Made by a program: the position numbers and the translations under genes. The notes under the pieces are model-generated. The model made no database searches. It saw only the letters and a program-made list of their open reading frames with translations, and was not told the origin of the DNA. Below are positions 5,992 through 35,668 of a DNA stretch of 64,000 bases, one piece after another. The stretch's first letter is position 1, and each line of letters begins with the position of its first letter. The stretch is from Candidatus Cloacimonadales bacterium (GTDB lineage Bacteria > Cloacimonadota > Cloacimonadia > Cloacimonadales > JAIOQZ01): positions 3,520,001 to 3,584,000 of the forward strand of contig OY762463.1 in the NCBI GenBank assembly GCA_963665815.1, given 5' to 3'.

Positions 5992-6681
5992 CTATATTAA
6001 TCCGGCACCGACAAAAGAATAGTATTCATTGTTACTTATAATGAGATGATCAAGTAGGTGTACATTAATCATATTTATTGCCATTTTAATCTTTTCGGTG
6101 ATTAGAATGTCTTCTTTTGACGGTTGAGTAGTACCACCCGGATGATTATGTACAATAACTATTGATGCTGCATTACATAGAATGATATGTTCAATAATTA
6201 CTCTCAAGTAAATCTTTGCTTCGTTTACAGTACCTTTAAACAGGGTTTCCTCGAACAGGATAGTGTTTTTAACACTGAGGTATATGATCTTGAATTCCTC
6301 ATTCTTGAGCCCCTTGTAATATGAGTGTACATAATTGAAAATATCATCTGAAGACTTGAAGAAATCTTTACCAATAATATGTTCCTGCAAACGGAATACA
6401 TTTACATCTCTGAATAATTTGATAAGAGAAGCTGTTCTCTCACCAACTCCTTCAATTTCAGTCAGTAATTGAGGAGGAGCCTGAAAAACATTATTAAGTG
6501 TATGAAACTTACTTAAAAGTCTTTTAGCTATTGGTTTTGTATCTTTACGTATAATTGAATAGGAGAGAATAATCTCCAGTACTTCATAATCATGAAATCC
6601 TGCCAACCCGTCTTTAAGATATCTTTCTCTCAACCTTACTTTATGCTTTGAGTTCTCATTCCCGTTTATTTCAGAAGCCAT
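5992..6681 (-). CDS. radC: RadC/JAB-domain protein
   Basis: H..RLRERY, HhH IEGVGE, JAMM motif HNHPGG..PSKED, LLDHLII. Confidence 0.95.
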   Translation of the reverse strand: MASEINGNENSKHKVRLRERYLKDGLAGFHDYEVLEIILSYSIIRKDTKPIAKRLLSKFHTLNNVFQAPPQLLTEIEGVGERTASLIKLFRDVNVFRLQEHIIGKDFFKSSDDIFNYVHSYYKGLKNEEFKIIYLSVKNTILFEETLFKGTVNEAKIYLRVIIEHIILCNAASIVIVHNHPGGTTQPSKEDILITEKIKMAINMINVHLLDHLIISNNEYYSFVGAGLI

Positions 6682-7097
6682 TCCAGGTAGTTATCCTTTT
6701 TCACCAGTGAAAAGTAGTTGTACTTTTTCCTGCTTATTTTGTTTTCATCAAATATATCATCAAAGAGAGTAATCACTCTCCTGTGAGACGTAAAGCTTTT
6801 TATAATCAATGCGAATTTTTCCAGCCTAGAACTGAATAACATTTTTTTGTATTCATTTATTACGTTATGCAGTTCCATTAAATTCGAGGTATCTGTTTTA
6901 AGGAATTTAGCATTAAAAACAATGAAGTATCTTGCACTTCGTTTCGCATCATTTTGTACGAACTCAAGACATTGCTTCAATACTTTAGATTCATTACTGA
7001 TTCTTACATTATATAGAAATACTTTCTTTTTTTTATATATTACAATTTCTCTGGATACGGATTCTTCTGCTTGTTCAAACTTATCCCAGATAGGCAT
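6666..7097 (-). CDS. Hypothetical protein (weakly SpoIIAA/STAS-like)
   Basis: Fills the gap between asd and radC on the same strand; C-terminal YF...YLEWL pattern; fold is a guess. Confidence 0.6.
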   Translation of the reverse strand: MPIWDKFEQAEESVSREIVIYKKKKVFLYNVRISNESKVLKQCLEFVQNDAKRSARYFIVFNAKFLKTDTSNLMELHNVINEYKKMLFSSRLEKFALIIKSFTSHRRVITLFDDIFDENKISRKKYNYFSLVKKDNYLEWLLK

Positions 7098-7100
7098 AAT

Positions 7101-8093
7101 TTATCCTTTATTTATTTTATTATGTTTGATCATTATTCGTACGGCATTGGTCGCAGCTCCTACGAATACATTATGTGCAATGTTTACAAAACTTAATGAA
7201 TAATCATCAAGCCCTTTCCTCAGTCTGCATACATGAGAATACTCTCGTTCAGTGCTACTCTCAATAGATTTCGGAGTAATGGTATTCTTGTGAAGTTTAA
7301 CATGCTCTGTCATAGATAGAATATATTCTGCTTTGGAAATATCAACTTTTTTCTTGAATTTTGTGTGTATTGCTATAGTGTGTCCATATATAACAGGAAC
7401 TCTGATTGTTGTAGCGGATACATTTATCTCCTGACAATCAAATATCTTTTGAGTCTCTGTTAACATTTTCAATTCTTCACTGCAATATCCGTTATCTGTA
7501 ATATCACCGATTTGAGGGATTACATTATTACGTATTGGGGCACTGAAGCATGATTCCGTATTGATATTCTTTTCTTCATTTATCAAACTCATTATCCCAT
7601 TATTACCTGCACCTGATACAGACTGATAAGTACTTGTAACAATCTCATCAATGGAGTATTCGTTATGCAGATCTGCCAATGCAATAACCATTTGGATTGT
7701 AGAACAATTCGGATTGGCAATAATACCTTGATAGTCCTTTAAAGTATGGCTGTTTAATTCCGGTACGACAAGAGGGATGTTCTTATCGGATCTGAAAGCT
7801 GATGAGTTATCAATAATAATGCTGCCTGCCTGTGCTGCTATTGGAGAGAAATGTTTTGAGATTGATCCACCGGATGAAAAAAGCAGATAGTCAAATTTCT
7901 CTTTCATGGATTCTTCTGTGAGAGTCTCAACAGAGATTTCTTTATCCCTGAATTTCAATATCTGTCCGGCAGATTTTCGGGAGGCGAAAAGATGCAGATC
8001 AATTTCACTAAAACTGCTGTCTTTGATTGAACTAACCTGTTCAATCATAGCTCTACCTACTGCCCCTGTTGCTCCGACAATACCTATTTTCAT
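7101..8093 (-). CDS. asd: Aspartate-semialdehyde dehydrogenase
   Basis: IVGATGAVG, IDNSSAFR, ANPNCSTIQ, YQSVSGAG; start at MKIGIV. Confidence 0.97.
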   Translation of the reverse strand: MKIGIVGATGAVGRAMIEQVSSIKDSSFSEIDLHLFASRKSAGQILKFRDKEISVETLTEESMKEKFDYLLFSSGGSISKHFSPIAAQAGSIIIDNSSAFRSDKNIPLVVPELNSHTLKDYQGIIANPNCSTIQMVIALADLHNEYSIDEIVTSTYQSVSGAGNNGIMSLINEEKNINTESCFSAPIRNNVIPQIGDITDNGYCSEELKMLTETQKIFDCQEINVSATTIRVPVIYGHTIAIHTKFKKKVDISKAEYILSMTEHVKLHKNTITPKSIESSTEREYSHVCRLRKGLDDYSLSFVNIAHNVFVGAATNAVRIMIKHNKINKG

Positions 8094-24123: not shown

Positions 24124-25055
24124 TTCAGGATATCTATAAACATGAATTTCATAATCCCGTTGTGACTATGGGGACATTTGATGGTGTTCATAAAGGACAT
24201 CAACATCTTCTTGAACAGGTAAAAATGCATGCTGACAAAATTAACGGAAATTCTATTGCAATTACTTATTATCATCATCCTCTTGAAACACTTAATAAAG
24301 TTACATTTCCTTATCTGCTCACAGAAAAATCCAGAAAAGAAGCACTACTGAAGTCCTATGGAATTGATAAAGTGTTTTTCCTTAACTTCACAAAAGAAAT
24401 GGCTGGAATGACTGCATATGACTTCCTGAGGGATATCCTGATCAAACATATTAATCCAAAAGTTATTGTTGCAGGTTATGACACTCACTTTGGATTGAAC
24501 AGAGAAGGCAATTACGATTTTTTGAAAAAACATGAAGCTGACTTTAACTACAATGCTGAAATAGTAGAACAGTTTTGTGTGAATAAGGAAGTCGCAAGCA
24601 GCAGTAATATAAGAGAGCATATAAGAACAGGGGATATGGAATCTGCCAAAGCTTTACTCGGACGTTACTATACTCTTGACGGTATTGTTGTTCATGGCAT
24701 GAGTCTGGGGCGTGAGCTTGGTTTCCCAACAATCAATATTCATCCTGAAGATGACATGAAACTGATCCCGCATACAGGTATCTATTTTACCAAAGTGAGA
24801 TTCTCAGATAAGGAATTCTTTGCTCTGGCAAACATTGGCTATTCTCCAACAATTAAACATACCGGAATAGTTGAACTCGAAGCTTATCTTCTTGATTTTT
24901 CAGGAGATCTTTATGATAAAAATGTTGAGATAAGTTTTTTGAAAAGACTCAGAGATGAAATTGAGTTTAAAAACCAGGATGAATTAATTGACCAGATTAA
25001 ACTTGATGTTGTTGAAGCAAGAAAGTTAATTGCTGAGATTAATCGTCATAACTGA
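24120..25055 (+). CDS. ribF: Riboflavin kinase/FAD synthetase
   Basis: GTFDGVHKGH, SSS.IR, GRELGFPT.N. Confidence 0.97.
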   Translation: MIQDIYKHEFHNPVVTMGTFDGVHKGHQHLLEQVKMHADKINGNSIAITYYHHPLETLNKVTFPYLLTEKSRKEALLKSYGIDKVFFLNFTKEMAGMTAYDFLRDILIKHINPKVIVAGYDTHFGLNREGNYDFLKKHEADFNYNAEIVEQFCVNKEVASSSNIREHIRTGDMESAKALLGRYYTLDGIVVHGMSLGRELGFPTINIHPEDDMKLIPHTGIYFTKVRFSDKEFFALANIGYSPTIKHTGIVELEAYLLDFSGDLYDKNVEISFLKRLRDEIEFKNQDELIDQIKLDVVEARKLIAEINRHN

Positions 25056-25347
25056 AAAAGAAAAGTACAGCTCCCCATAAACATTGCAGAAACGAATATT
25101 TTCTTCTACAATCTTTAAACATTCTATACATACCCCGAGGTGAATAAATATTCACATTGTTTTGTCTCTCAAGATTTATTTTACGCTGATAAATCTCTGT
25201 TCTCGTAGACCACTCAATAGCTCCATCTTCTCCATGTTTATAGGGAATATAACCTTGGTCAATATACGCTTTTTTTTCTGCCGGATTCATTCTTACATCT
25301 TTGGGGTCAAGAATAATTATATCATCATGTTTCTTCTGAGGAGACAT
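25039..25347 (-). CDS. Small hypothetical protein
   Basis: GGAG SD; 102 aa; convergent with and slightly overlapping ribF. Confidence 0.5.
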   Translation of the reverse strand: MSPQKKHDDIIILDPKDVRMNPAEKKAYIDQGYIPYKHGEDGAIEWSTRTEIYQRKINLERQNNVNIYSPRGMYRMFKDCRRKYSFLQCLWGAVLFFFSYDD

Positions 25348-25553: not shown

Positions 25554-25901
25554 TTATAACAGTATGCTATCTATTGATGATTTTAGCTGTTCCTTAGGTA
25601 ACGCACCCATTGCCATCTGAGGTTTCCCTTCTTTAGGAATGAACAACAAAGATGGGATACTTCTTATTCCAAAAGCCCCGGCAAGTTCCTGCTGTTCCTC
25701 AGTATTTACCTTAAATATGTCGATTTTACCTTCATACTCCTGAGATAATTCCTCAAGTACAGGAGCTATCATTTTGCAAGGTCCGCACCAGTCTGCATAA
25801 AAATCGATTAAACATGGTTTTTCACCAATGAATTTCCAGTCTTCGCTATTCTCATAATCAAATATCTTTTTGATGAATGTTTCTTTTGTTAAGTGTTCCA
25901 T
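25554..25901 (-). CDS. trxA: Thioredoxin
   Basis: DFYADWCGPCK, IRSIP; no signal peptide. Confidence 0.95.
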   Translation of the reverse strand: MEHLTKETFIKKIFDYENSEDWKFIGEKPCLIDFYADWCGPCKMIAPVLEELSQEYEGKIDIFKVNTEEQQELAGAFGIRSIPSLLFIPKEGKPQMAMGALPKEQLKSSIDSILL

Positions 25902-25989: not shown

Positions 25990-26979
25990 TTATCTGTCAC
26001 CTGTAAATCGAAAGAGTGCGCCGGATGTCTCTTCATTAATACCAAAAGCATATTTGTTTAACTGCTGTTGCACTGCTTCCAGCGGGAATCCTTTTTTCAC
26101 TGCAATAATAAATGAAGTACTGTTTAATTCTTCAATAACTACATCTTCTAAGGTTGACTCTGTGAATATAATAGAGTTTTCTAAATCCTTGAAGCTCACA
26201 GTGTCATTTATTGTTTTTATTTCGATGTTTCTACCAGTCTCTGCACTGAGCATTTTTTGCAGTTCCTTGAAATACCCCTGATTATCCTCAGCATATACAA
26301 GTATGTTTCGTTTCGTTTCAAAAACGCTGATTTGCTCAATATAATTCATAGGTGGAGCAGGATTAAAGTATTTCACAAGTCCTGTGATACCAAGAATTGT
26401 ATATATTACAGCAACGAGCAATGCGGCATATCTGGCGTATTTTTTGATAATGTGAATTTTGGTTAGTACGTTAACAAATGCGAGTGGGAGCAGGAAAAGT
26501 GATGTACTGATGAAAAATCCAAAGAAAAGAAGCATTCCATTAATCACACCTCCGATATCAAGTACACGTGAAAGAGCTATAAGGAATGACGGGCAGAAAT
26601 TTATCCCGGTCAGAATACCTAACAGAAAAGCGCTTTTGGAAATTTTGGCAATTTTCGGTACAGCACATTTTTTATGTTCATTGTGAGTTCTGTATGTTGT
26701 CAGCAAGAGATATGCAGAGAGCAATATGTAGGCTATTGACGTATACAATGATCTGTTTGTTCCGGAAATAACAGATCCGGTAAAACCTGCTAATGCTCCA
26801 AAAGTAAGGTATGAGAAAAATCTACCGGCGGAGATTTCTACAACAGCCATTATACTGCTGCTTATCTTTCTGTCTTCTGTCAGAAGGTAGGGAAGGTAAA
26901 TCGGTGCACAGGATGCAAGGCATGTTGCTCCTGTTGCAAAGCCGAAGAACAGTCCTTCAAATAATATTCCGAACTGCAT
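25990..26979 (-). CDS. CcdA/DsbD_2 (TauE-like) membrane protein with a soluble C-terminal domain
   Basis: About 6 TM helices with membrane Cys motifs TCLASCAP and NFCP; ~120 aa hydrophilic tail. Confidence 0.7.
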   Translation of the reverse strand: MQFGILFEGLFFGFATGATCLASCAPIYLPYLLTEDRKISSSIMAVVEISAGRFFSYLTFGALAGFTGSVISGTNRSLYTSIAYILLSAYLLLTTYRTHNEHKKCAVPKIAKISKSAFLLGILTGINFCPSFLIALSRVLDIGGVINGMLLFFGFFISTSLFLLPLAFVNVLTKIHIIKKYARYAALLVAVIYTILGITGLVKYFNPAPPMNYIEQISVFETKRNILVYAEDNQGYFKELQKMLSAETGRNIEIKTINDTVSFKDLENSIIFTESTLEDVVIEELNSTSFIIAVKKGFPLEAVQQQLNKYAFGINEETSGALFRFTGDR

Positions 26980-26984
26980 AATTT

Positions 26985-28115
26985 TTACCAGATATACAAG
27001 ATACTTACAGTATGAGTTTGTGTATCATCCAATTCAGAATAATTTTCCATACTGAAATTGTAGTTAAGGTAAGTGGAATTATTCAGAAATTTAAATCTTA
27101 AACCACCATGAAGCTCATTTTCAGTTTCAATGTTTACACCATAAAAGTATCTGTATTCAGTGTGAAGCGTTAGTAATGTTATGGGGTACTCAACTTTAAG
27201 CTTAATGTATCCCTGCTCATCTACAGTATAATACTTAGTACCTGCCTGAATAAGTGCCAGATCATTATCATCTGTATAGAACAGGTTTCGCTGCAGGATT
27301 GTTTCGATAAATGATGTTCCCCAGAGCAGTTCATCATCTTCCTTAATCATGCGAGTCTGGAATCTGTTTACGGAAAGCCAGTCCTGACTGAGCTTAAACA
27401 GATGTCTCACATTAAAATATCCATGGATTCTATTGTTTTCATAGCCATCTGAAACATCGTATATCGCCGAGACAGTGCTCTTGAGAAAATGCTGATGATT
27501 GAAGCTCAAGAAAAGCTCTGCTCCAAGCTCGTTCATAATATAGTTATAATCTGAGTTGTCATTTAAATCATTGAATGACTGAATACGGAAAAAAGGTTTC
27601 AGTTTCTCATGTTTAATGTACTGCATCTTCATGTCGATAAGCTGATCACTTTCTATATGTTCATCATTCTCAAGTGCAAGACGACGCATATCTAAGTTCA
27701 TATCCAAGCTGACAGTTTCTCTGAAATTACTGCTCAAGCTGAATCCGCCATACAATTGATTTTCCTGTTTCATTGCTTCAGGAATACCGCTGATATGGAT
27801 TTCCTTGTTATTATCAAAATAACCTTCTGCACCCACATAAGCGCTGAAAGAAAATATTTTGGAATATCTGGACAAAGCAACTGTGTTTTTCAGATAGTTA
27901 TTATAGTATGATCCATTAAATTCATCATTAGCATTGTATTTCAATAATGTAACATTACTAATATTAATGGATTTATATTTTAATTTTGCATAATTCTCAA
28001 CTCTCATGATAGAATCATCATTGTCAGAGGAGTTATATTCAATTTTCACCTGATTCTGAAACCCTGAAAGAAGGAATGGCATAATGATGATCAGTATTAT
28101 AAGTATTTTTCTCAT
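26985..28115 (-). CDS. Predicted outer-membrane beta-barrel protein
   Basis: Signal peptide; alternating strands (FSFSAYVG, LHGGLRFKF, YLNYNFS); C-terminal VSILYIW. Confidence 0.6.
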   Translation of the reverse strand: MRKILIILIIIMPFLLSGFQNQVKIEYNSSDNDDSIMRVENYAKLKYKSINISNVTLLKYNANDEFNGSYYNNYLKNTVALSRYSKIFSFSAYVGAEGYFDNNKEIHISGIPEAMKQENQLYGGFSLSSNFRETVSLDMNLDMRRLALENDEHIESDQLIDMKMQYIKHEKLKPFFRIQSFNDLNDNSDYNYIMNELGAELFLSFNHQHFLKSTVSAIYDVSDGYENNRIHGYFNVRHLFKLSQDWLSVNRFQTRMIKEDDELLWGTSFIETILQRNLFYTDDNDLALIQAGTKYYTVDEQGYIKLKVEYPITLLTLHTEYRYFYGVNIETENELHGGLRFKFLNNSTYLNYNFSMENYSELDDTQTHTVSILYIW

Positions 28116-28357
28116 CTTATAGCCTCCTCAGGACATTTTGTCACACAATCACCGCATTGCTTGCATTTCGACTGGATTATTGAAGCTTTCCCGTTTGTAA
28201 TTACAATTGCATCATGGGGACAGGCATCTCTGCACTTTCCACAGGATATACATGCATCCTTGTCTATGGAATATTCAAATGATGTTGCTTTTTTACAACC
28301 TGCAAAAACAGCGAACACGAATGAAAGAGCTAAGAATATATAGAGGGCTTTTCTCAT
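28112..28357 (-). CDS. 2[4Fe-4S] ferredoxin lipoprotein
   Basis: MRKALY...FAGC lipobox; CISCGKCRDACP and CKQCGDCVTKCP; ATGA overlaps with both neighbours. Confidence 0.85.
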   Translation of the reverse strand: MRKALYIFLALSFVFAVFAGCKKATSFEYSIDKDACISCGKCRDACPHDAIVITNGKASIIQSKCKQCGDCVTKCPEEAIR

Positions 28358-28599
28358 TTTATTGCTCCGAATGTACATGTTGTAAGACAGAGTTTACAGT
28401 TGATGCATTTCTCTGTGTCAATCACAGCTTTGCCTTCTGATACTGTTATTGCCTTTACCGGGCATACTGTCTGGCAGTCTCCACATCCGGCACAGTCTGA
28501 CTGTATAACGATCGGTTTTTTATCTTCAGATTTCGCATTACCTGCAAAAACGATGAAAACCAGAGAGAGTAAAAATATTATTATAAATGTTTTCTTCAT
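28354..28599 (-). CDS. Exported 2[4Fe-4S] ferredoxin
   Basis: MKKTF...VFA signal peptide; CAGCGDCQTVCP and CINCKLCLTTC. Confidence 0.85.
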   Translation of the reverse strand: MKKTFIIIFLLSLVFIVFAGNAKSEDKKPIVIQSDCAGCGDCQTVCPVKAITVSEGKAVIDTEKCINCKLCLTTCTFGAIK

Positions 28600-28608
28600 A
28601 TTCCCTTC

Positions 28609-30819
28609 CTAATATACGTGAACACCAAGGTGAATAGCATTCCAGCCGCATCTGTTATAGCATGTACCACAAGCATCACATGCTGCCGTATCAATTGTCT
28701 TATAGTTTCCTACATCCGATATTGCATCTTCAGGGCAGAACCTGAGACAGCTGTTACAATCAGCACATTGATTCGGGTTTATGATGTATACAATCTTACC
28801 GGAAACAATATTTGATATTGATCCGTAATTGTTGCTGTCATCTATTGCTTTGATAGCTATGTAATAACGAGTTCCGTTTGAAATTCCATTTACATCGCAG
28901 GTTTGAGTTGTTCCTGCCGCACCTGGTGCCGGAGAACTGGAAAACGGACTTGCATTATCCCAGTTTGCATCTGTTATAGGTGATTGAGAATATCGAATAT
29001 CATAGCTTGCTGCAGTTCCTATATCAGCATCATCTCCGGGGGCAGTCCATGTAACACGTAATCTCCCGTTCAATGCAGCGGATGCCACGATTTGGAGATC
29101 GGTAATGGCTGACGGAGGAGTATCATCGGCTGTTAACTGACCTGATACAATGTTGGATATTCCACTGTAGTTTCCAGCTTCATCAAAAGCTTTAATACCG
29201 AAATAATACAGTGTTCCAACTTCTATGTCAGTTATCTCAAAACTTTCTTGATTACCATTTGCCTGCGGAGTCAAACTGCAGCTGACAGGATCGGCAGAAT
29301 CCCAGTTGGTAGAGTTCAGTTCTGTTGTAGATTTTTTTATCTCATATCCTTCACTTGTTCCAGTGTTACCATCATCACCTGTTGAAGTCCATGTGAGTTC
29401 CATGGAAGCAGGGAGCAGGCTCAGTTGCAAGTCAGTAATATCTGCAGGAGCAAGAGTGTCTGCCACTGTATCCGTAGTGAAAGATACAATATTAGATAAT
29501 CCGGATATGTTATCGGAGTCATCAATTGATTTGATACCTATATAGTATTCAGTATCTGATGTAAGATTTGTAATAAGAAGACTTTCATCAGATCCTGATT
29601 GTGATGGAACATAGTTATGGGGAAACTCTGTCAGGGAATCCCAGTTTTGATCGGTAATATCAGCTTCACTGACTTTTATGATGTATTCCGTAGCTGTCCC
29701 TGTATCACCATTATCTCCCGGAGCAGTCCAGATTATTCTGGCACTGGAAGCTGTAACCAATTCTGTTGCGAGGTCACTGACAGTTGACGGTGGAGTTACA
29801 TCTCCTGTGATAGATGCAACAGCAATATTGGATAGTTCAGATTCATTATCAGACTCATCTACAGCTTTTATGGCAAATTCAAAGCTGATTCCTACTTCAA
29901 GATCATCAATAACGAGGTTTTCAGATATTCCAGCGGTTTGTGGTGAAATAGAATTATTATATTCCTCAGCCAGATCCCAGTCAAAGGGGCTTGTTTGGGA
30001 ATATTTAATAATGTAATGATCCGCTGTTCCTGTCATATCATCATCACCGACAGCAGACCAACTCAGTTCTATTGATTCTTCATTTGATACAGCAGCAAGA
30101 TCGGATATAGCTGCAGGTGCTGTTTCATCAGTGATCAGTCCTGCTATGATGGTAGATCTTTCAACTTCTGTATTTTTATTGCCTGCTTCATCTTCAACTT
30201 GAAGTCTAACGGTTAAAAGGTAATCTGAATTAAGACTGTCAACAACCCATTCGACATGGGTGCCGCCCTGATAATAAGCGTATTCTGCACATGGAATTTC
30301 AACTTCTTCCATATCATCATATTCATCGTCATCAACGTCATCAACGTCATCATCATTGGCCCTTGTATCGGTCATATCATCGAGGTAGGCTGACAGTTTA
30401 TATTTATATGCATAACCTGTCATTCCATCATCTCCCGGAGCAGTAAAAGATATAACTGCTTCGTATGGATTTTCTGAAACAACTTTGAAGTCATTGATAT
30501 CTGCCGGTGCATTAATATCTTTTGCTGTTGTAAAAGCAACTGTACCATCACGACCTTCACAGTCAGCGAAGAGATCAATACATTTCATGCAGCTAATACA
30601 TTTGTCTTTATCAATGTAATATGCTCCGTTTTCATCATCGAGAAGAATGGCATTCTCCGGACATTCAAACATCGTTGTACAATTACCACATTGAGTACAA
30701 TCGGAATATTCAATTCTTGGCTGATTGTTATTTCCGGTGTTTTTATTCACTTTATCAGCACAGAAAAACAGCAGGAATGATACAGCAAGAATTGCTATTA
30801 TCTTAATAGTTTTGATCAT
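28609..30819 (-). CDS. Lipoprotein: ferredoxin domain, five FN3-like repeats, ferredoxin domain
   Basis: LLFFC lipobox; CTQCGNC/CISCMKC; repeats D..P.AI.DL...(W/F)TAPGDDG..G.A..Y; CADCNSCLRFCP/CDACGTCYNRC. Confidence 0.85.
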   Translation of the reverse strand: MIKTIKIIAILAVSFLLFFCADKVNKNTGNNNQPRIEYSDCTQCGNCTTMFECPENAILLDDENGAYYIDKDKCISCMKCIDLFADCEGRDGTVAFTTAKDINAPADINDFKVVSENPYEAVISFTAPGDDGMTGYAYKYKLSAYLDDMTDTRANDDDVDDVDDDEYDDMEEVEIPCAEYAYYQGGTHVEWVVDSLNSDYLLTVRLQVEDEAGNKNTEVERSTIIAGLITDETAPAAISDLAAVSNEESIELSWSAVGDDDMTGTADHYIIKYSQTSPFDWDLAEEYNNSISPQTAGISENLVIDDLEVGISFEFAIKAVDESDNESELSNIAVASITGDVTPPSTVSDLATELVTASSARIIWTAPGDNGDTGTATEYIIKVSEADITDQNWDSLTEFPHNYVPSQSGSDESLLITNLTSDTEYYIGIKSIDDSDNISGLSNIVSFTTDTVADTLAPADITDLQLSLLPASMELTWTSTGDDGNTGTSEGYEIKKSTTELNSTNWDSADPVSCSLTPQANGNQESFEITDIEVGTLYYFGIKAFDEAGNYSGISNIVSGQLTADDTPPSAITDLQIVASAALNGRLRVTWTAPGDDADIGTAASYDIRYSQSPITDANWDNASPFSSSPAPGAAGTTQTCDVNGISNGTRYYIAIKAIDDSNNYGSISNIVSGKIVYIINPNQCADCNSCLRFCPEDAISDVGNYKTIDTAACDACGTCYNRCGWNAIHLGVHVY

Positions 30820-30831
30820 GAAATAACCTTA

Positions 30832-31542
30832 TTATTTATTTTCTTTTTTCTCAATAACTTTCACAGGACATGCTTTTTCACAAATTCCGCAATCAATGCA
30901 TTTTTCCTGGTCAATTACAGCTTTGCCTTTTTTCATTTCAATGGCACCAACAGGGCATTTTTTTACACAAATTTTACATCCAATACATTCTTTAGCATTT
31001 ACAGAATAGACAATCTTGTCTTTGGGATTTGCAACTTTTGCTTCAGCTTTATCAGCTTCCGGTGCATTCTGGCATGGATGGGTTCCACATGGTGTGTGTT
31101 GTGGTTTATGTGCATCTTTAACTGCTTTGTATTTTTCAGATCGTTTTTTTTGTTTTTCTGTTTCTTCATTGAAAGTTTTTACTTTTGGTTTAATTTTTTT
31201 TGCTTCCAGAAGTTTGTCTGTTGTAAATTCCTTAGATTTATGAGTCGTAACAGTTGCTTTGTCTTCAGTTATTTTTTTGAGGTCAACTGCTTCGGATTTT
31301 GCTTTTGATTTAACAATAGCATTTATGGGGCATTTATTAACACAAATTCCGCATCCAATACATTTATCTTTGTCTATAACAGCTTTCCCGTCTACCATTT
31401 TAATTGCATCAACAGGACAATCTTTTATGCAAAGTTTACATCCTATACAGTCATCTTTCTTCACTTCATATTTGGTTTTTACAGTTGCGAAAACTGCAAA
31501 TGTCAGTACTAACATTAAAGCAATGGTAAGTAGTTTCTTCAT
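30832..31542 (-). CDS. Exported tetra-[4Fe-4S] polyferredoxin with a Lys-rich linker
   Basis: AGGAG SD; MKKLL...VFA signal peptide; four CxxCxxCxxxCP motifs in two domains. Confidence 0.85.
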   Translation of the reverse strand: MKKLLTIALMLVLTFAVFATVKTKYEVKKDDCIGCKLCIKDCPVDAIKMVDGKAVIDKDKCIGCGICVNKCPINAIVKSKAKSEAVDLKKITEDKATVTTHKSKEFTTDKLLEAKKIKPKVKTFNEETEKQKKRSEKYKAVKDAHKPQHTPCGTHPCQNAPEADKAEAKVANPKDKIVYSVNAKECIGCKICVKKCPVGAIEMKKGKAVIDQEKCIDCGICEKACPVKVIEKKENK

Positions 31543-31640
31543 TTTTTTTATCTCCTGAAAAAATATATTATTTATGTTTGTCAAAAACAAGCATAATATT
31601 AAATAATGGCAAGTAAAAGTTAGAGTAAATGGAGTGCGAA

Positions 31641-32429
31641 ATGAAAAAGCATAAATCACGTTATATCATTCAGTTTTTGTTTCTTGCTGTCTCAATGTTT
31701 ATCAATGTACTAATGATCACTGAGAAGCTTGGAGTAGCTCATGAATTCTGCCCGTTTTCTGCTGTCTGTTTCGGGTTATTTGTTTTACATCCTGCAGTAA
31801 CAGACTGGATTTTCGGAGTTTCAATTACAGTTTCTATTATAATTATTTTATCTGCAATTCCTTTCAGAAGGGTTTTCTGTGGATATGTATGCCCAATAGG
31901 CACAATACAGGAATATGTGTTTGCTTTTTTCAAGTTTAATAAGAAATGTGGAAGAAGGATTCCGGAAAAAATGCATAAAGCATTGTTATGGTTGAAGTAT
32001 ATTGTACTTGCTGCAATTGTAGTCTTAGTTATCAATGGAATGCACAGGTTTTATGTAGATAAATGTCCTGTTTATTCTCTGGGGCATGTAACCGGAATTA
32101 CAATATCCGGAATTGCTGTATTACTTGTGATTTTTGTCGGCTCTTTCTTTATTGAGCGATTATGGTGCCGGTATCTTTGTCCATTGGCTGCGCTGCTTAA
32201 CATAATGCAGATCATAGGAAAAGTTTTACATATACCATCTTACAAGATAAAGAGGAACTTAGCTGACAGCTTTTGTTGTAGAGATTGCCCTGAATACTGT
32301 CCTATGGGAGTAAATTATAAAGACAAAGAAGTAGTTGAATCAGTAGAATGTATACAATGTAGATTTTGTCAAAGACAATGCTGTTTATCCGCAAAAGATT
32401 TATCGAAATGTATTCATAAGAATCCCTGA
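31641..32429 (+). CDS. NapH/MauN-like membrane 4Fe-4S protein
   Basis: TM helices; FCGYVCP and WCRYLCP motifs; C-terminal ferredoxin-like Cys clusters. Confidence 0.85.
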   Translation: MKKHKSRYIIQFLFLAVSMFINVLMITEKLGVAHEFCPFSAVCFGLFVLHPAVTDWIFGVSITVSIIIILSAIPFRRVFCGYVCPIGTIQEYVFAFFKFNKKCGRRIPEKMHKALLWLKYIVLAAIVVLVINGMHRFYVDKCPVYSLGHVTGITISGIAVLLVIFVGSFFIERLWCRYLCPLAALLNIMQIIGKVLHIPSYKIKRNLADSFCCRDCPEYCPMGVNYKDKEVVESVECIQCRFCQRQCCLSAKDLSKCIHKNP

Positions 32430-32509: not shown

Positions 32510-33307
32510 TTATTTTGATTTCCTAAACTGCTTTTTTTCTTTGACTTCTTCATTTTTTCTGAATTCAGAAGATAGTTTTCTTAGTTTATCGTCCATTTTC
32601 AGACTCTGCCATTCTTTAAAGCCGCCTTCAAGAACAAAGATTTGCTTATCTTCAAATTTTGCAAGTCGTTCTGCAACAGTTGCAGCATTTTCAAATTCAT
32701 TTGCATATACGAAGAAAAACTGTTTTTTGCTGAGATTCTTCATGAAAGTTTCCTTTTTTTCAGACTTGACATCAAGATTAACAGCACCATAAATATGGTG
32801 TTCTTCGAAAATGTATTCCGGGCTTGCATCAATAATAATGCTGTTATTATAATGTTTTACAAGGATATCGAAAGCATTTTCCGAAGATACATACTGAATT
32901 TTGTTAACCGGCCGAGTGGGCTTTCTTTTTTTTCTTGGAGCTCCGGTTATGTGACCTTTCATAGTAACTATTTCATATTCATTGGCAGTGTTAGCATAGA
33001 TTTTAATTCTCTTGTTATGGCGTCCTGCCTGACGCTTAGGGTTAAAGTCCACTTTTACAAAGCCTTTCTTACCAGGCATAATCTTTCCAGTTGACCAACT
33101 GGTTGAGGAACATCCGCATCCAGACTGGATTTTGGATATTACTAACGGCTCATCCCCGGTATTAGTGAAGTTATACGTGTAGCTGAATGGACCGTCTACT
33201 TCTTTCCATTCCTTGAAATCATAGGTGTCAGTTTCGAAACTCATCACCGGTACTGAATTCAGGGCAGCAGAAAGAATCAACATCACAAGCAATAAATATC
33301 GCTTCAT
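32510..33307 (-). CDS. Exported DUF1573 (Ig-like) plus rhodanese-like protein
   Basis: Signal peptide; FTNTGDEPL.I....GCGC; IID.....F...HIYGAVNL and LEGGFKEW. Confidence 0.8.
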   Translation of the reverse strand: MKRYLLLVMLILSAALNSVPVMSFETDTYDFKEWKEVDGPFSYTYNFTNTGDEPLVISKIQSGCGCSSTSWSTGKIMPGKKGFVKVDFNPKRQAGRHNKRIKIYANTANEYEIVTMKGHITGAPRKKRKPTRPVNKIQYVSSENAFDILVKHYNNSIIIDASPEYIFEEHHIYGAVNLDVKSEKKETFMKNLSKKQFFFVYANEFENAATVAERLAKFEDKQIFVLEGGFKEWQSLKMDDKLRKLSSEFRKNEEVKEKKQFRKSK

Positions 33308-34941
33308 TCGATTACTCCCTTCATGCTGATTTGCATTGTTTTTCTGTTACCATCCTCATGAAAAAACATTGTTATTTCTTCAGAACCTGAAAGTTCAAAT
33401 TCGTCTGAATCCGGAAGAAATATAATTGATTTCTTCAAAATAGGTATCAAATTTATGTTATTATTGCAAAAGTTAAGTTTTTCGTAAAGTAATTTTCTGA
33501 TAGTTTTAGATTTCTCCTGTCCAAGAAGATCAGGATAATGAAGGTTTTTAGTTATAAGACACCAGTCCCATCGCAGATAATCCATACAAGTATGCCTTTG
33601 CTCAGGAAGGTATTCATCACACAAATCAAGCAGAAATTCGGCAACTGTCAGCCACCGATTGTTTGTAAGTCTGCAAGATAACTCAAAGTCCAGAAGAGTC
33701 TCGAAGAACAACATTGGACTGTCATATTTTCTGATAAGCCAGTTCAGAGTATTGCTGAATTTACCTGAATTATGCAGGATTTCCATCCAGACAGCAATTT
33801 TTTTAAATTTCCTGATCTCTGAATAACTCATCCAGTCTGTACTAAGAACTTCGTAAGGTGGTTCAACAGTATGAATAAGATTGTTATAGCAGGTGTTGAT
33901 TGTTGTACCTTGCAGAACTTTCAGAAAACCTATTTGTATATGATCTGCTCCTGTGTTAAACAAATCATTTAATGTGACTGATGCAGATTTATAATCCTGA
34001 TGAGGCAGTCCGGTGATCATGTCAATATGGGTGTGGATGTTTTTCAGTTGAATAAGCTTTAGCAGGTTTGACCTGATATCATTCCACTTCTGGAATCTTG
34101 ATACTGCATAATTGACGGCATCGTCAGTTGACTGTATCCCGATTTCAAATTGAAACTTGTTTTCCGGTACAGTGCTGAGGAACTCAATATCTTCATCAAT
34201 AACAAAAGCAGGATGAATCTCAAAATGAAATCCGGTATTAGTGGTTTTACTTAATATTGATTTCCATAATTGTAAACTGTAATTTCTGTCGCAGTTAAAT
34301 GAGCGATCTATGAATTTGATCAAATCCGGTTTGAATCCGAGAATATAATCAAGTTCTGCAGATACTTTCTTAATGCTTTTCCTGCTCAGTTTCATGTCTT
34401 CACGTGAAGAAAGACAATAAGAGCACTTGAAGATACATCCTCTGGATGCTTCATAATAGATAATTTTGTTTTCCAGGCATTTCAGATCAATATTTTTATA
34501 TGGGTTATCTGAGAGCTCAAAATTGTCTGCTTGTCCATATATTATTTTTCCTTTAACACTGAAATCTGATTCGGCGAGATTTATTATTGCCTTTTCTCCC
34601 GGTCCTGAAATGATATAATCTGCAATATCTGTGTATTCCTGCGGATTGTATGAGACTTCAGGTCCACCAAAAACTATCACGGACTCAGGCATAATCCTTT
34701 TGAGATTAATAGCTACCTGCTTAACCAGAGAAACATTCCAGATATATACAGAAAAACTGTAAACATCTGCTTTTCTGTCATAGAGGTTGTTCAGTAGTTC
34801 ATCTGCAGGTGTATTGATAGAATATTCAGAGATTTCAGATTCAATGTTGCAATTAGCAAGAGCCTGGTGTAGATAAAAAACTGCAGGATTAGAGTGTGAA
34901 TATCTTGCATTAAGGGATACAAACAGTATTGTCTTATTCAT
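33304..34941 (-). CDS. B12-binding-domain radical SAM protein (DUF4080 type)
   Basis: FSVYIWN, GGPEVS, YYEASRGCIFKCSYC, FEIGIQS. Confidence 0.88.
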   Translation of the reverse strand: MNKTILFVSLNARYSHSNPAVFYLHQALANCNIESEISEYSINTPADELLNNLYDRKADVYSFSVYIWNVSLVKQVAINLKRIMPESVIVFGGPEVSYNPQEYTDIADYIISGPGEKAIINLAESDFSVKGKIIYGQADNFELSDNPYKNIDLKCLENKIIYYEASRGCIFKCSYCLSSREDMKLSRKSIKKVSAELDYILGFKPDLIKFIDRSFNCDRNYSLQLWKSILSKTTNTGFHFEIHPAFVIDEDIEFLSTVPENKFQFEIGIQSTDDAVNYAVSRFQKWNDIRSNLLKLIQLKNIHTHIDMITGLPHQDYKSASVTLNDLFNTGADHIQIGFLKVLQGTTINTCYNNLIHTVEPPYEVLSTDWMSYSEIRKFKKIAVWMEILHNSGKFSNTLNWLIRKYDSPMLFFETLLDFELSCRLTNNRWLTVAEFLLDLCDEYLPEQRHTCMDYLRWDWCLITKNLHYPDLLGQEKSKTIRKLLYEKLNFCNNNINLIPILKKSIIFLPDSDEFELSGSEEITMFFHEDGNRKTMQISMKGVIE

Positions 34942-35668
34942 TTCCGAGTGATTTGACTCTCTCATATATAATGGTTTTAGCTTTTTCCAGATCTTCAGGG
35001 AAATCTATTTCAATACATGGAAGATCCTGACTTGGAACTGCTTTTAAAGTTGTTTCAGACAGCATCAGATTTACAGCATACTCAAAATAATTGTTACCAA
35101 GATTTTTATCAACGCATTCTGTCAGCCTGTTTTCCAGAAGCTTCAAGTCGTTTCTGGCAAATTTTGCGATACCTATGAATTCACCTGCACATTTTTCAGG
35201 TTCGATCTGCTTGCCTATAAAACTGATGTCCATATTTTTATCAATAACAAGTTTTACTTCCTCAGCTCCGCATTTTTTCTCTTCAAGGATAAATTCGGAT
35301 GTTTGAGAATTATTGAACAGATCAAGCATTTTTCCACCAAAGAATATGTCAGCATTAAAATATATGAAATCGTCTGTAAACAAATCTCTGCAAAGCCATA
35401 ATGAATAGAGTGTGTTGGTTGTTGCATAAATTGGATTTTCTACGAATGTAACCTGATCAGGCTTGAGAAGTTCCAGTATATGGGACTTAAGTACATCCAT
35501 CTGATAGCCGACAACAACAACAAAGTCATTGATCCCATATTCTAAACATGTTTGTATCTGATTATGGATAATGGATTTTTCACCGATTTTTATCATGCTT
35601 TTAGGTTGTTCTTTACCCTTTGTACCAAGTCTGCTTCCTCTACCGGCAGCAAGTATTACCGCTTTCAT
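34934..35668 (-). CDS. Phosphocholine cytidylyltransferase-family NTP transferase
   Basis: MKAVILAAGRGSRL, PKS, TNTLYSL, EIDFPEDL. Confidence 0.85.
   Translation of the reverse strand: MKAVILAAGRGSRLGTKGKEQPKSMIKIGEKSIIHNQIQTCLEYGINDFVVVVGYQMDVLKSHILELLKPDQVTFVENPIYATTNTLYSLWLCRDLFTDDFIYFNADIFFGGKMLDLFNNSQTSEFILEEKKCGAEEVKLVIDKNMDISFIGKQIEPEKCAGEFIGIAKFARNDLKLLENRLTECVDKNLGNNYFEYAVNLMLSETTLKAVPSQDLPCIEIDFPEDLEKAKTIIYERVKSLGNE

Follow-up and report, generated by a model that had tools for sequence, protein, structure and literature searches.

This analysis concerns a 64,000-nucleotide stretch of DNA (the window) from a Candidatus Cloacimonadales bacterium (GenBank assembly GCA_963665815.1, contig OY762463.1, positions 3,520,001 to 3,584,000 of the forward strand). 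It was found that four consecutive open reading frames (ORFs) on the minus strand of the window, from 31542 to 28112, all encode ferredoxin-type proteins with 2x[4Fe-4S]-type domains. They are called P1, BIG, S1, and S2 here.

30832..31542, minus strand: P1, a predicted signal-peptide protein of 236 residues with two 2x[4Fe-4S] domains and a K/E-rich linker
28609..30819, minus strand: BIG, a large putative lipoprotein of 736 residues
28354..28599, minus strand: S1, a small predicted signal-peptide ferredoxin of 81 residues with a single dicluster domain
28112..28357, minus strand: S2, a small predicted lipoprotein ferredoxin of 81 residues with a single dicluster domain

By Pfam gathering scores (the Fer4 cut-off is 21.1 bits), Fer4-type families lie above the cut-off in all four proteins. 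P1 matches Fer4 with 105 bits in four stretches, S1 with 48.5 bits, and S2 with 57.5 bits. BIG consists of an N-terminal eight-Cys ferredoxin domain, an acidic insert, FN3 repeats, and a C-terminal eight-Cys ferredoxin-like domain with the end ...VHVY; Fer4_10 or Fer4 matches lie at both of its ends (43.4 bits for Fer4), and fn3 scores 92 bits in four stretches, corresponding to at least four FN3 domains. An AGGAG sequence is located 9 nt 5′ of the P1 ATG. ATGA sequences combine the S1 stop codon with the S2 start codon, and the S2 stop codon with the start codon of a downstream gene for a predicted outer-membrane β-barrel.

All four N-termini read exactly as the original prediction had quoted them. 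The predicted cleavage sites are between MKKLLTIALMLVLTFAVFA and TVK for P1 and between MKKTFIIIFLLSLVFIVFA and GNAK for S1, leaving a mature S1 of about 55-60 residues. BIG begins with MIKTIKIIAILAVSFLLFFC. S2 begins with MRKALYIFLALSFVFAVFAGC, and its lipobox cleavage is predicted between MRKALYIFLALSFVFAVFAG and C. The S/T-R-R-x-F-L-K motif was absent from all four N-termini, in agreement with the original prediction.

Is this more than a chance occurrence? The genome of the window is a single contig of 3,963,599 bp and is 98.66% complete. It has 47 stop-to-stop segments with a CxxCxxCxxxC motif, among which signal-peptide-like N-termini were seen by eye only in the four ferredoxins and one DUF362 protein. 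The same N-terminal architecture was found in orthologues from 43 other species genomes. Given the rarity among the 47 segments and the recurrence in the 43 genomes, the observation exceeds chance.

A conserved cassette in Cloacimonadota

I found that the four genes belong to a phylum-wide, previously undescribed cassette, which includes three further genes in the window.

26985..28115, minus strand: a predicted outer-membrane β-barrel of 376 residues with a signal peptide
25990..26979, minus strand: a CcdA/DsbD_2-like membrane protein of 329 residues (Pfam DsbD_2, 69.2 bits versus 24.9)
31629..32429, plus strand: a NapH-like polytopic membrane protein of 266 residues, divergent from the ferredoxin operon

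The comparison sets were 41 related genomes and 232 genomes of the phylum Cloacimonadota, 151 of which are high-quality. The 376-residue barrel protein was found in 9 of the 41 related genomes, and the same ferredoxin genes lie alongside in all eight loci inspected from other genomes. For a scan of one genome per species, a degenerate DNA pattern was then derived by back-translation of the BIG N-domain (R-[IV]-E-[YF]-S-x-C-x2-C-x2-C-x3-F-x-CP); it gave 43 loci in further species genomes. Thirty-nine of these are titled Cloacimonadota, Cloacimonadales, Cloacimonadaceae, Cloacimonetes, or Tenebribacter; the other four comprise two "uncultured bacterium" loci, one Delongbacteria, and one Armatimonadota. 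The delimited loci, including the window, yielded 44 BIG, 36 S1, 36 S2, 29 barrel, and 26 DsbD_2-like sequences, the remaining loci being cut by contig ends or beyond the length filters. The alignments covered 36 S1, 35 S2, and 25 DsbD_2-like sequences.

Where the contig suffices, the gene order is the NapH-like gene (often present), a variable signal-peptide ferredoxin gene, BIG, S1, S2, the barrel gene, and the DsbD_2-like gene. The barrel gene is directly downstream of S2 in 29 loci, the DsbD_2-like gene follows it in 26 loci, and a homologue of the NapH-like protein (about 265 residues) is encoded immediately upstream of BIG in many loci. In the P1 position, seven other loci have similar signal-peptide proteins with two dicluster domains (168-233 residues), and further loci have a signal-peptide protein of 163-180 residues with one dicluster domain. 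A barrel profile matched 109/232 genomes of the phylum, 75/151 of the high-quality ones, and 38/66 genera, almost always with one copy per genome. In the literature passages searched, neither this cassette nor any Sec-exported or lipidated ferredoxin was found described, be it for Cloacimonadota or for other organisms; the cassette is not mentioned in the passages searched of Cloacimonadota genome papers and of a digester metatranscriptome paper. One of those studies proposes pili, not cytochromes, for electron transfer in Cloacimonadota.

The BIG proteins have some peculiar features. A hydrophobic-aromatic tail (...VVAY, ...VIGY, or ...VHVY) closes all 38 complete BIG proteins, for example those of the window (28609-28650), L022, L036, and L044. 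This tail resembles the β-signal of outer-membrane proteins and may dock onto the barrel. In the window BIG, an extremely acidic insert, NDDDVDDVDDDEYDDMEE, lies within the first FN3-like region (window 30290-30390, residues about 144-166) and could bind cations. One locus has BIG as two ORFs of 475 and 308 residues (L069:7504-8931 and 6443-7369, in the same record as L054); a frameshift, an assembly error, or a genuine split of the gene could explain this.

The barrel protein has no Pfam or NCBIfam family match. Its AlphaFold2 (AF2) model has 20 antiparallel strands after an N-terminal helix, with a mean predicted local distance difference test score of 75.8, and Foldseek matched the model to BtuB, FepA, OccK/OpdK, and AlgE with E values of about 1e-7 and TM scores of about 0.5. 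A complex prediction of the barrel (residues 20-376) with two 4Fe-4S ligands and mature S2, made without controls, gave 0.31, 0.50, and 0.15 versus a mark of 0.32, values that weigh neither in favor of binding nor against it.

The DsbD_2-like protein has four invariant Cys residues in the 25 aligned sequences: C20 and C24 in helix 1, C105, and C129. C24-x-P26 and C129-P130 are kept, and these Cys-Pro motifs sit in the first and fourth helices. Thus, the protein has Cys residues in two pseudo-symmetric helices as in the CcdA/DsbD type, while the invariance of C20 and C105 is atypical of the family. The AF2 model has six long helices and a Cys-free α/β domain at residues 215-325, which is probably periplasmic according to the positive-inside rule. 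A Foldseek search of the model against pdb gave no match at E<=0.001. The best VIA matches were to the membrane domain of Tic214, with Z scores (9.3 and 9.0) that for helical bundles fall under the caution level, and the C-terminal domain matched CheY/flavodoxin-like folds at Z of about 7. There was no NCBIfam match, and a protein-cluster search returned only the protein's own Cloacimonadota cluster with 248 members.

The NapH-like protein scores 60.3 bits for Pfam Fer4_5 (cut-off 22). Two CX3CP motifs are present, the C-terminus has a Cys-rich Fe-S region, and the predicted outer loops contain conserved Cys residues.

Signals, topology, and the lack of Tat

Signal classes were compared across the delimited loci. 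An n-region with K or R is present in every sequence (BIG 44/44, S1 36/36, S2 36/36), and the median uncharged span is 17 residues in BIG, 18 in S1, and 17 in S2. The lipobox sought at the end of the h-region was [LVI][ASTVI][GAS]-C, and G, A, or S stands directly before the Cys in 36/36 S2 and 35/44 BIG sequences. A Cys closes the BIG h-region in all 44 and is followed by x-Asp in nearly all of them, which I take to resemble the acidic lipoprotein export signal of Bacteroidota surface lipoproteins. In S2, K/D/E-K follows the lipobox Cys. The genome has one match to LspA (PF01252) and two to Lgt (PF01790), with both families over the cut-off, as well as five Omp85 matches. This indicates a diderm organism with a lipoprotein pathway. 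These features make it very probable that S2 and BIG are lipidated and that P1 and S1 leave the cytoplasm as secreted or, at the least, outward-facing proteins.

The N-termini might instead be uncleaved anchors that leave the ferredoxin domains in the cytoplasm, a case that would need no new maturation route. RnfB faces the cytoplasm, and like RnfB, the cassette ferredoxins have an N-terminal hydrophobic segment followed by Fer4 domains. The hydrophobic stretches are longish (the uncharged spans, with the medians given above, reach a maximum of 24), and some K/R residues follow them in P1 and S1. However, the N-terminal flank has a net charge of about +3, higher than the 15 residues past the hydrophobic stretch in BIG (44/44), S1 (36/36), and S2 (36/36), so that the N-in bias holds for 116/116 ferredoxin N-termini. 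The signal peptide of the barrel has the same bias (29/29), and the ferredoxin genes are translationally coupled to this barrel gene. The true RnfB of the same genome differs: it lacks N-terminal K/R, has a 27-residue uncharged span, and shows the opposite charge pattern to the cassette proteins, which also have lipoboxes. The lipobox Cys is invariant (35/35 aligned S2, 44/44 BIG), BIG has FN3 repeats, and orthologous families elsewhere bear cleavable Tat signals and hence are exported. Taken together, a cytoplasmic location of the domains, which the original prediction had named as a way for it to fail, is very improbable.

Could the proteins be exported by the twin-arginine (Tat) pathway, the other such way? 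TatC (PF00902) and TatA/B/E (PF02416) gave no match in the genome of the window, while the same searches matched in 11 of 14 control genomes. TatC was found in none of the 41 related genomes, in 9 of the 232 genomes of the phylum (8 over the cut-off), in 3 of the 151 high-quality ones, and in none of the 7 of the window's own family. It was also absent from the four genomes behind the loci not titled Cloacimonadota. A loose RR regular expression matched 1/44 BIG, 2/36 S1, and 0/36 S2 sequences. The MRRIVII... of the two S1 orthologues was considered as a Tat motif and rejected: the n-region is three residues long and those genomes lack TatC.

One Tat-bearing relative is informative. On a 133-kb contig, genome G174 carries tatC and tatA next to a gene for a 584-residue protein that starts with MSDKEKTTISRRQFLGLATGVVGAATLA and has ...TISRRQFLGL..., a canonical Tat signal. 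The cassette signals of G174 are of the Sec/lipobox type: MKKSLILFSLSIVTLIIIVSC for BIG, MKRKTLIFLLIMIVFAALWA for S1, and VKRIAAYLIILLLILIVWAC for S2. Since G174 keeps these signals despite having tatAC, the cassette signals are not decayed Tat signals. Thus, Tat-dependent export is disfavored both by the lack of TatC and TatA in the window's genome and by this relative. In G174, a member of Cloacimonadaceae, the tat genes also adjoin genes for a small ferredoxin and a membrane protein (L070:4731-5726 and L070:5967-7721). Its Tat may be a rare system retained or acquired within the phylum. The other eight TatC matches in the phylum come mostly from fragmented bins.

Another possibility is that the clusters are loaded in the cytoplasm and the folded proteins leave through an unrecognized translocase that is neither Tat nor Sec, maybe one involving the DsbD_2-like or the NapH-like protein. 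These are two conserved polytopic membrane proteins of unclear role that accompany the ferredoxins, and a cytoplasmic Fe-S scaffold is present in the form of one NifU_N match (605658-606020). SufB/SufD (PF01458) gave no match in the same genome, while the control matched in 14/14 genomes, so that the cytoplasmic Fe-S assembly machinery looks minimal. Against such a translocase, the signals are typical Sec or lipoprotein signals, and substrates of Lgt and LspA normally come through Sec. Moreover, six-helix proteins of the LysE/DsbD type are not known to conduct proteins, and the fold and family searches gave no evidence of a translocase. I regard this route as very improbable, about as much so as the cytoplasmic anchors. 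Export by the Sec/lipoprotein pathway without Tat is well supported by the signals and by the gene content.

Cluster loading and a possible electron path

Do the exported domains carry clusters? In the S1 alignment, C36, C39, C42, C46, P47, C65, C68, C71, and C75 are invariant. The S2 alignment has an invariant lipobox C21, all eight ferredoxin Cys residues, and the motif Pro, and the CxxCxxCxxxCP spacing is constant across 35-36 orthologues of S1 and S2. The BIG N-domain has the pattern Cx2Cx2Cx5CP ... Cx2Cx2Cx4-8C in 44/44 orthologues, and the C-terminal domain has eight Cys residues in 38/38 complete sequences. The ferredoxin domains look functional as judged by these ligands, and the cassette of the window would carry up to 12 clusters.

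The original prediction left two possibilities, namely that clusters are assembled outside the cytoplasm or that these folds hold something else, and this alternative still stands. The second case would mean that Sec export is true and no Fe-S cluster exists outside, the Cys residues binding Zn or another metal or forming disulfides in a structural, adhesive, or sensing complex. It would fit the adhesin-like stalk of BIG, whose FN3-like repeats vary in number from 1 to 13, and the atypical CxxCxxCxCP spacing in many BIG C-domains. A CcdA-like protein could serve disulfide or thiol management just as well, and, going by a 2026 Tat review, no route for Fe-S loading after Sec export is known. On the other hand, the domains score as bona fide Fer4, well over the gathering cut-offs, and the Cys spacing and the Pro of the motif are invariant in the 35-36 orthologues. 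A clostridial-type ferredoxin folds around its clusters and has hardly any hydrophobic core. The NapH-like partner belongs to an electron-transfer membrane protein family, and the homologous exported polyferredoxins elsewhere use Tat, which implies clusters in those proteins. A cluster-free complex is therefore rather improbable, although it is the most serious of the alternatives considered. Since all eight Cys residues of every domain are invariant, cluster assembly outside the cytoplasm is favored, and cluster binding after export is likely.

The best overall reading is that the ferredoxins are exported unfolded by Sec, loaded with clusters after export, and used as a cytochrome-free electron-transfer module; I would give it a probability of about 0.5. 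P1 and S1 with their Sec signals, and BIG and S2 with their lipoprotein signals, would cross the inner membrane unfolded via SecYEG, as the organism lacks Tat. S2 and BIG would then be lipidated by Lgt, cut by LspA, and sorted to the outer membrane. BIG is possibly at the surface, given its variable FN3 stalk and the acidic residues after the Cys. The [4Fe-4S] clusters would be inserted after export, possibly from ambient Fe(II) and sulfide on reduced cysteines. Cloacimonadota are viewed as strictly anaerobic, syntrophic fermenters. Post-export loading is chemically plausible for small clostridial-type ferredoxins, whose clusters can be rebuilt in vitro with Fe(II), sulfide, and a thiol, and it is plausible too for strict anaerobes that inhabit sulfidic, iron-rich environments. 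The likeliest helper would be the four-Cys CcdA/DsbD_2-like protein, which may supply reductant (electrons from thioredoxin, by which 8-32 Cys residues would be kept reduced) or metal. According to one report (PMC10550928), TerC proteins (MeeF/MeeY) metalate enzymes in the course of Sec export, a precedent for cofactor supply coupled to Sec. Unlike the loading proposed here, the TerC case concerns Mn and not Fe-S.

Electrons may pass from the NapH-like inner-membrane protein to the periplasmic ferredoxins, and then to the barrel and the FN3-stalked surface lipoprotein. Such a cytochrome-free relay would suit syntrophic fermenters without cytochromes and quinones. In the genome of the window, no candidates for multihaem cytochromes were found (only two ORF segments have two CxxCH motifs), nor was MenA (TIGR00751). 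The genome also has Rnf, with RnfB at 1987967-1988866, and several [FeFe]-hydrogenase-like polyferredoxin ORFs. The electron-conduit role is a reasoned but tentative hypothesis, a little short of even odds. The most extended version seems doubtful: it would combine extracytoplasmic [4Fe-4S] assembly, a four-Cys CcdA-like maturation factor, and an Fe-S conduit across the outer membrane that passes low-potential electrons to partners or minerals.

Several points weigh against this reading at each of its steps. As to the signals, their classes were assigned by a rule set devised in this analysis, and the h-regions, with 13-16 hydrophobic residues and uncharged spans that reach 24, are long by the standard of Gram-negative signal peptides; thus, P1 and S1 could stay as uncleaved N-in anchors with the domain still outward. 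The lipobox claimed in the original prediction is canonical in S2, but the h-region of the window BIG ends with a non-canonical L-F-F-C, and 9/44 BIG sequences have F, Y, H, or N in place of G, A, or S at position -1. As to the clusters, the second motif of the BIG C-domain is frequently shortened to Cx2Cx2CxCP, an unusual spacing, and no Fe-S assembly system is known outside the cytoplasm. The 2026 Tat review lists [4Fe-4S] and [2Fe-2S] among the cofactors shown to be inserted before Tat transport. As to the electron path, the two ferredoxin domains of BIG lie several FN3 domains apart, which is awkward for a linear electron wire, and the barrel might just as well serve the surface lipoprotein as a translocon and not be a redox sheath. 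The NapH-like protein scores far below the NapH/MauN cut-offs (53.1 versus 213 for TIGR02163 and 50.4 versus 234 for NF007013). Finally, no barrel match was found in 123/232 genomes of the phylum, indicating that the cassette is not essential.

How does the cassette compare with known systems? It comes closest to a NapGH-type module with an added outer-membrane part of the porin-cytochrome kind, and it belongs to neither group. As in NapGH, MauMN, and NosGH, the genes for exported ferredoxins with 2-4 clusters adjoin one for a Fer4_5 membrane protein that has CX3CP motifs and an Fe-S region at its C-terminus. NapG-type partners are Tat substrates, whereas the cassette has Sec or lipoprotein signals, no Tat, no catalytic reductase gene, and no MenA. 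It also adds an outer-membrane barrel and lipoproteins, and its NapH-like score is 53 versus 213. As in the MtrCAB/PCA conduits, a periplasmic redox protein, an outer-membrane barrel, and a redox lipoprotein are encoded together, probably in fixed ratios. In contrast to those conduits, the centers would be [4Fe-4S] and not haem, in a genome without multihaem candidates. The MtrB barrel has 26 strands, while the cassette barrel is predicted to have 20 and shares no sequence family with MtrB. The DsbD_2-like protein resembles CcdA/DsbD in its DsbD_2 match and in the Cys-Pro motifs of helices one and four, but it has four invariant Cys residues rather than two and an extra Cys-free α/β domain.

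The textbook rule is that Fe-S proteins reach the periplasm only in a folded state via Tat, and the cassette runs against that expectation. In the same view, restated in the 2026 review, fermenters that have lost Tat export no redox proteins any more. A phylum largely without Tat nevertheless keeps a tightly packed operon in which four ferredoxin genes with Sec or lipoprotein signals lie beside an outer-membrane barrel gene. If the proteins carry clusters, an Fe-S maturation route must exist outside the cytoplasm, and extracellular or interspecies electron transfer could use ferredoxins in place of multihaem cytochromes. Cytochrome-based genome screens of digesters and sediments would then miss such activity. 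S1, with a mature part of about 55 residues, would be easily expressed and offers a direct test protein for this long-standing assumption about export.

Related exported ferredoxins and other neighbors

I found that Sec-type signals on Fe-S proteins are also present beyond the cassette. The DUF362 protein mentioned above (G000:C1:2205257-2206336, minus strand) has a 2x[4Fe-4S] domain and a Sec-type N-terminus, with MKKYITYLILILSAFAIYA before the predicted cleavage site and GT after it. Its paralogues at 2284192-2285238 and 2987231-2988373 have no signal. The protein has 4900 homologues at E<=1e-20, and the best 120 of them are 54-94% identical. By a crude rule, these best 120 include 13 with a canonical twin-arginine signal (such as ...KMTRREFMATTG and ...MSKITRRQFLSTAG), 88 with a Sec-like signal, and 19 with none or an unclear one. 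Thus, both types of signal serve for export within a single orthologous Fe-S family. The sources of the homologues include Cloacimonetes, Bacteroidales, Bacteroidota, Marinilabiliales, and Deltaproteobacteria, and the DUF362 result suggests that the phenomenon reaches past the cassette and past the phylum.

An exhaustive search with the S1 profile gave 26,829 matches. The best 150 clusters include 70 Sec-signal ferredoxins, either S1-like (about 80 residues) or P1-like (150-250 residues). By eye, at least 11 of the same 150 are polyferredoxins whose RR-x-F-L signal closes with a lipobox, which indicates that lipidated exported ferredoxins exist elsewhere by the textbook route. These Tat-exported lipoprotein polyferredoxins (P0132, P0146, P0153, P0162, P0187, P0240, P0265, P0267, and others) share the ferredoxin profile and the lipobox-ended signal with the cassette proteins. 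They differ in having RR-x-F-L and 6-11 Cys motifs, while the cassette proteins have n-regions of 2-4 residues with K/R and no RR.

Two further neighbors of the cassette in the window have recognizable families.

25554..25901, minus strand: a cytoplasmic thioredoxin of 115 residues with WCGPC (Pfam Thioredoxin, 96.1 bits)
32510..33307, minus strand: a signal-peptide protein of 265 residues with DUF1573 (98.4 bits) and Rhodanese (45.2 bits) Pfam domains

The thioredoxin is a possible reductant for the DsbD_2-like protein; apart from the window, its gene was seen adjoining the cassette only in L010, a locus of the same genus. The DUF1573-rhodanese protein is likewise encoded in L010 and was not seen in the other loci inspected. 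It has weak NCBIfam matches to OS_HP2 and rhodanese_LYCAU, which are annotated as (seleno)protein families. The position of an exported sulfurtransferase next to the cassette is suggestive, though its conservation is limited to the genus. Directly upstream of the rhodanese gene lies a gene for a B12-binding radical-SAM protein with DUF4080 (window 33304-34965, minus strand; 553 residues). The rhodanese-DUF1573, B12 radical-SAM, and thioredoxin neighbors were considered as core parts of the cassette and rejected, as they recur only within the same genus.

Between ribF and the thioredoxin gene lies a conserved ORF of 102 residues whose C-terminal segment is hydrophobic (window 25039-25347, minus strand); it gave no Pfam match and is also found in L010. 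In L011, L013, and L017, large neighboring proteins end with ...KMILLK or ...KMILIK, presumably a lineage-typical C-terminal sorting tail like those of the type IX secretion system. Such tails fit a cell surface rich in secreted proteins.

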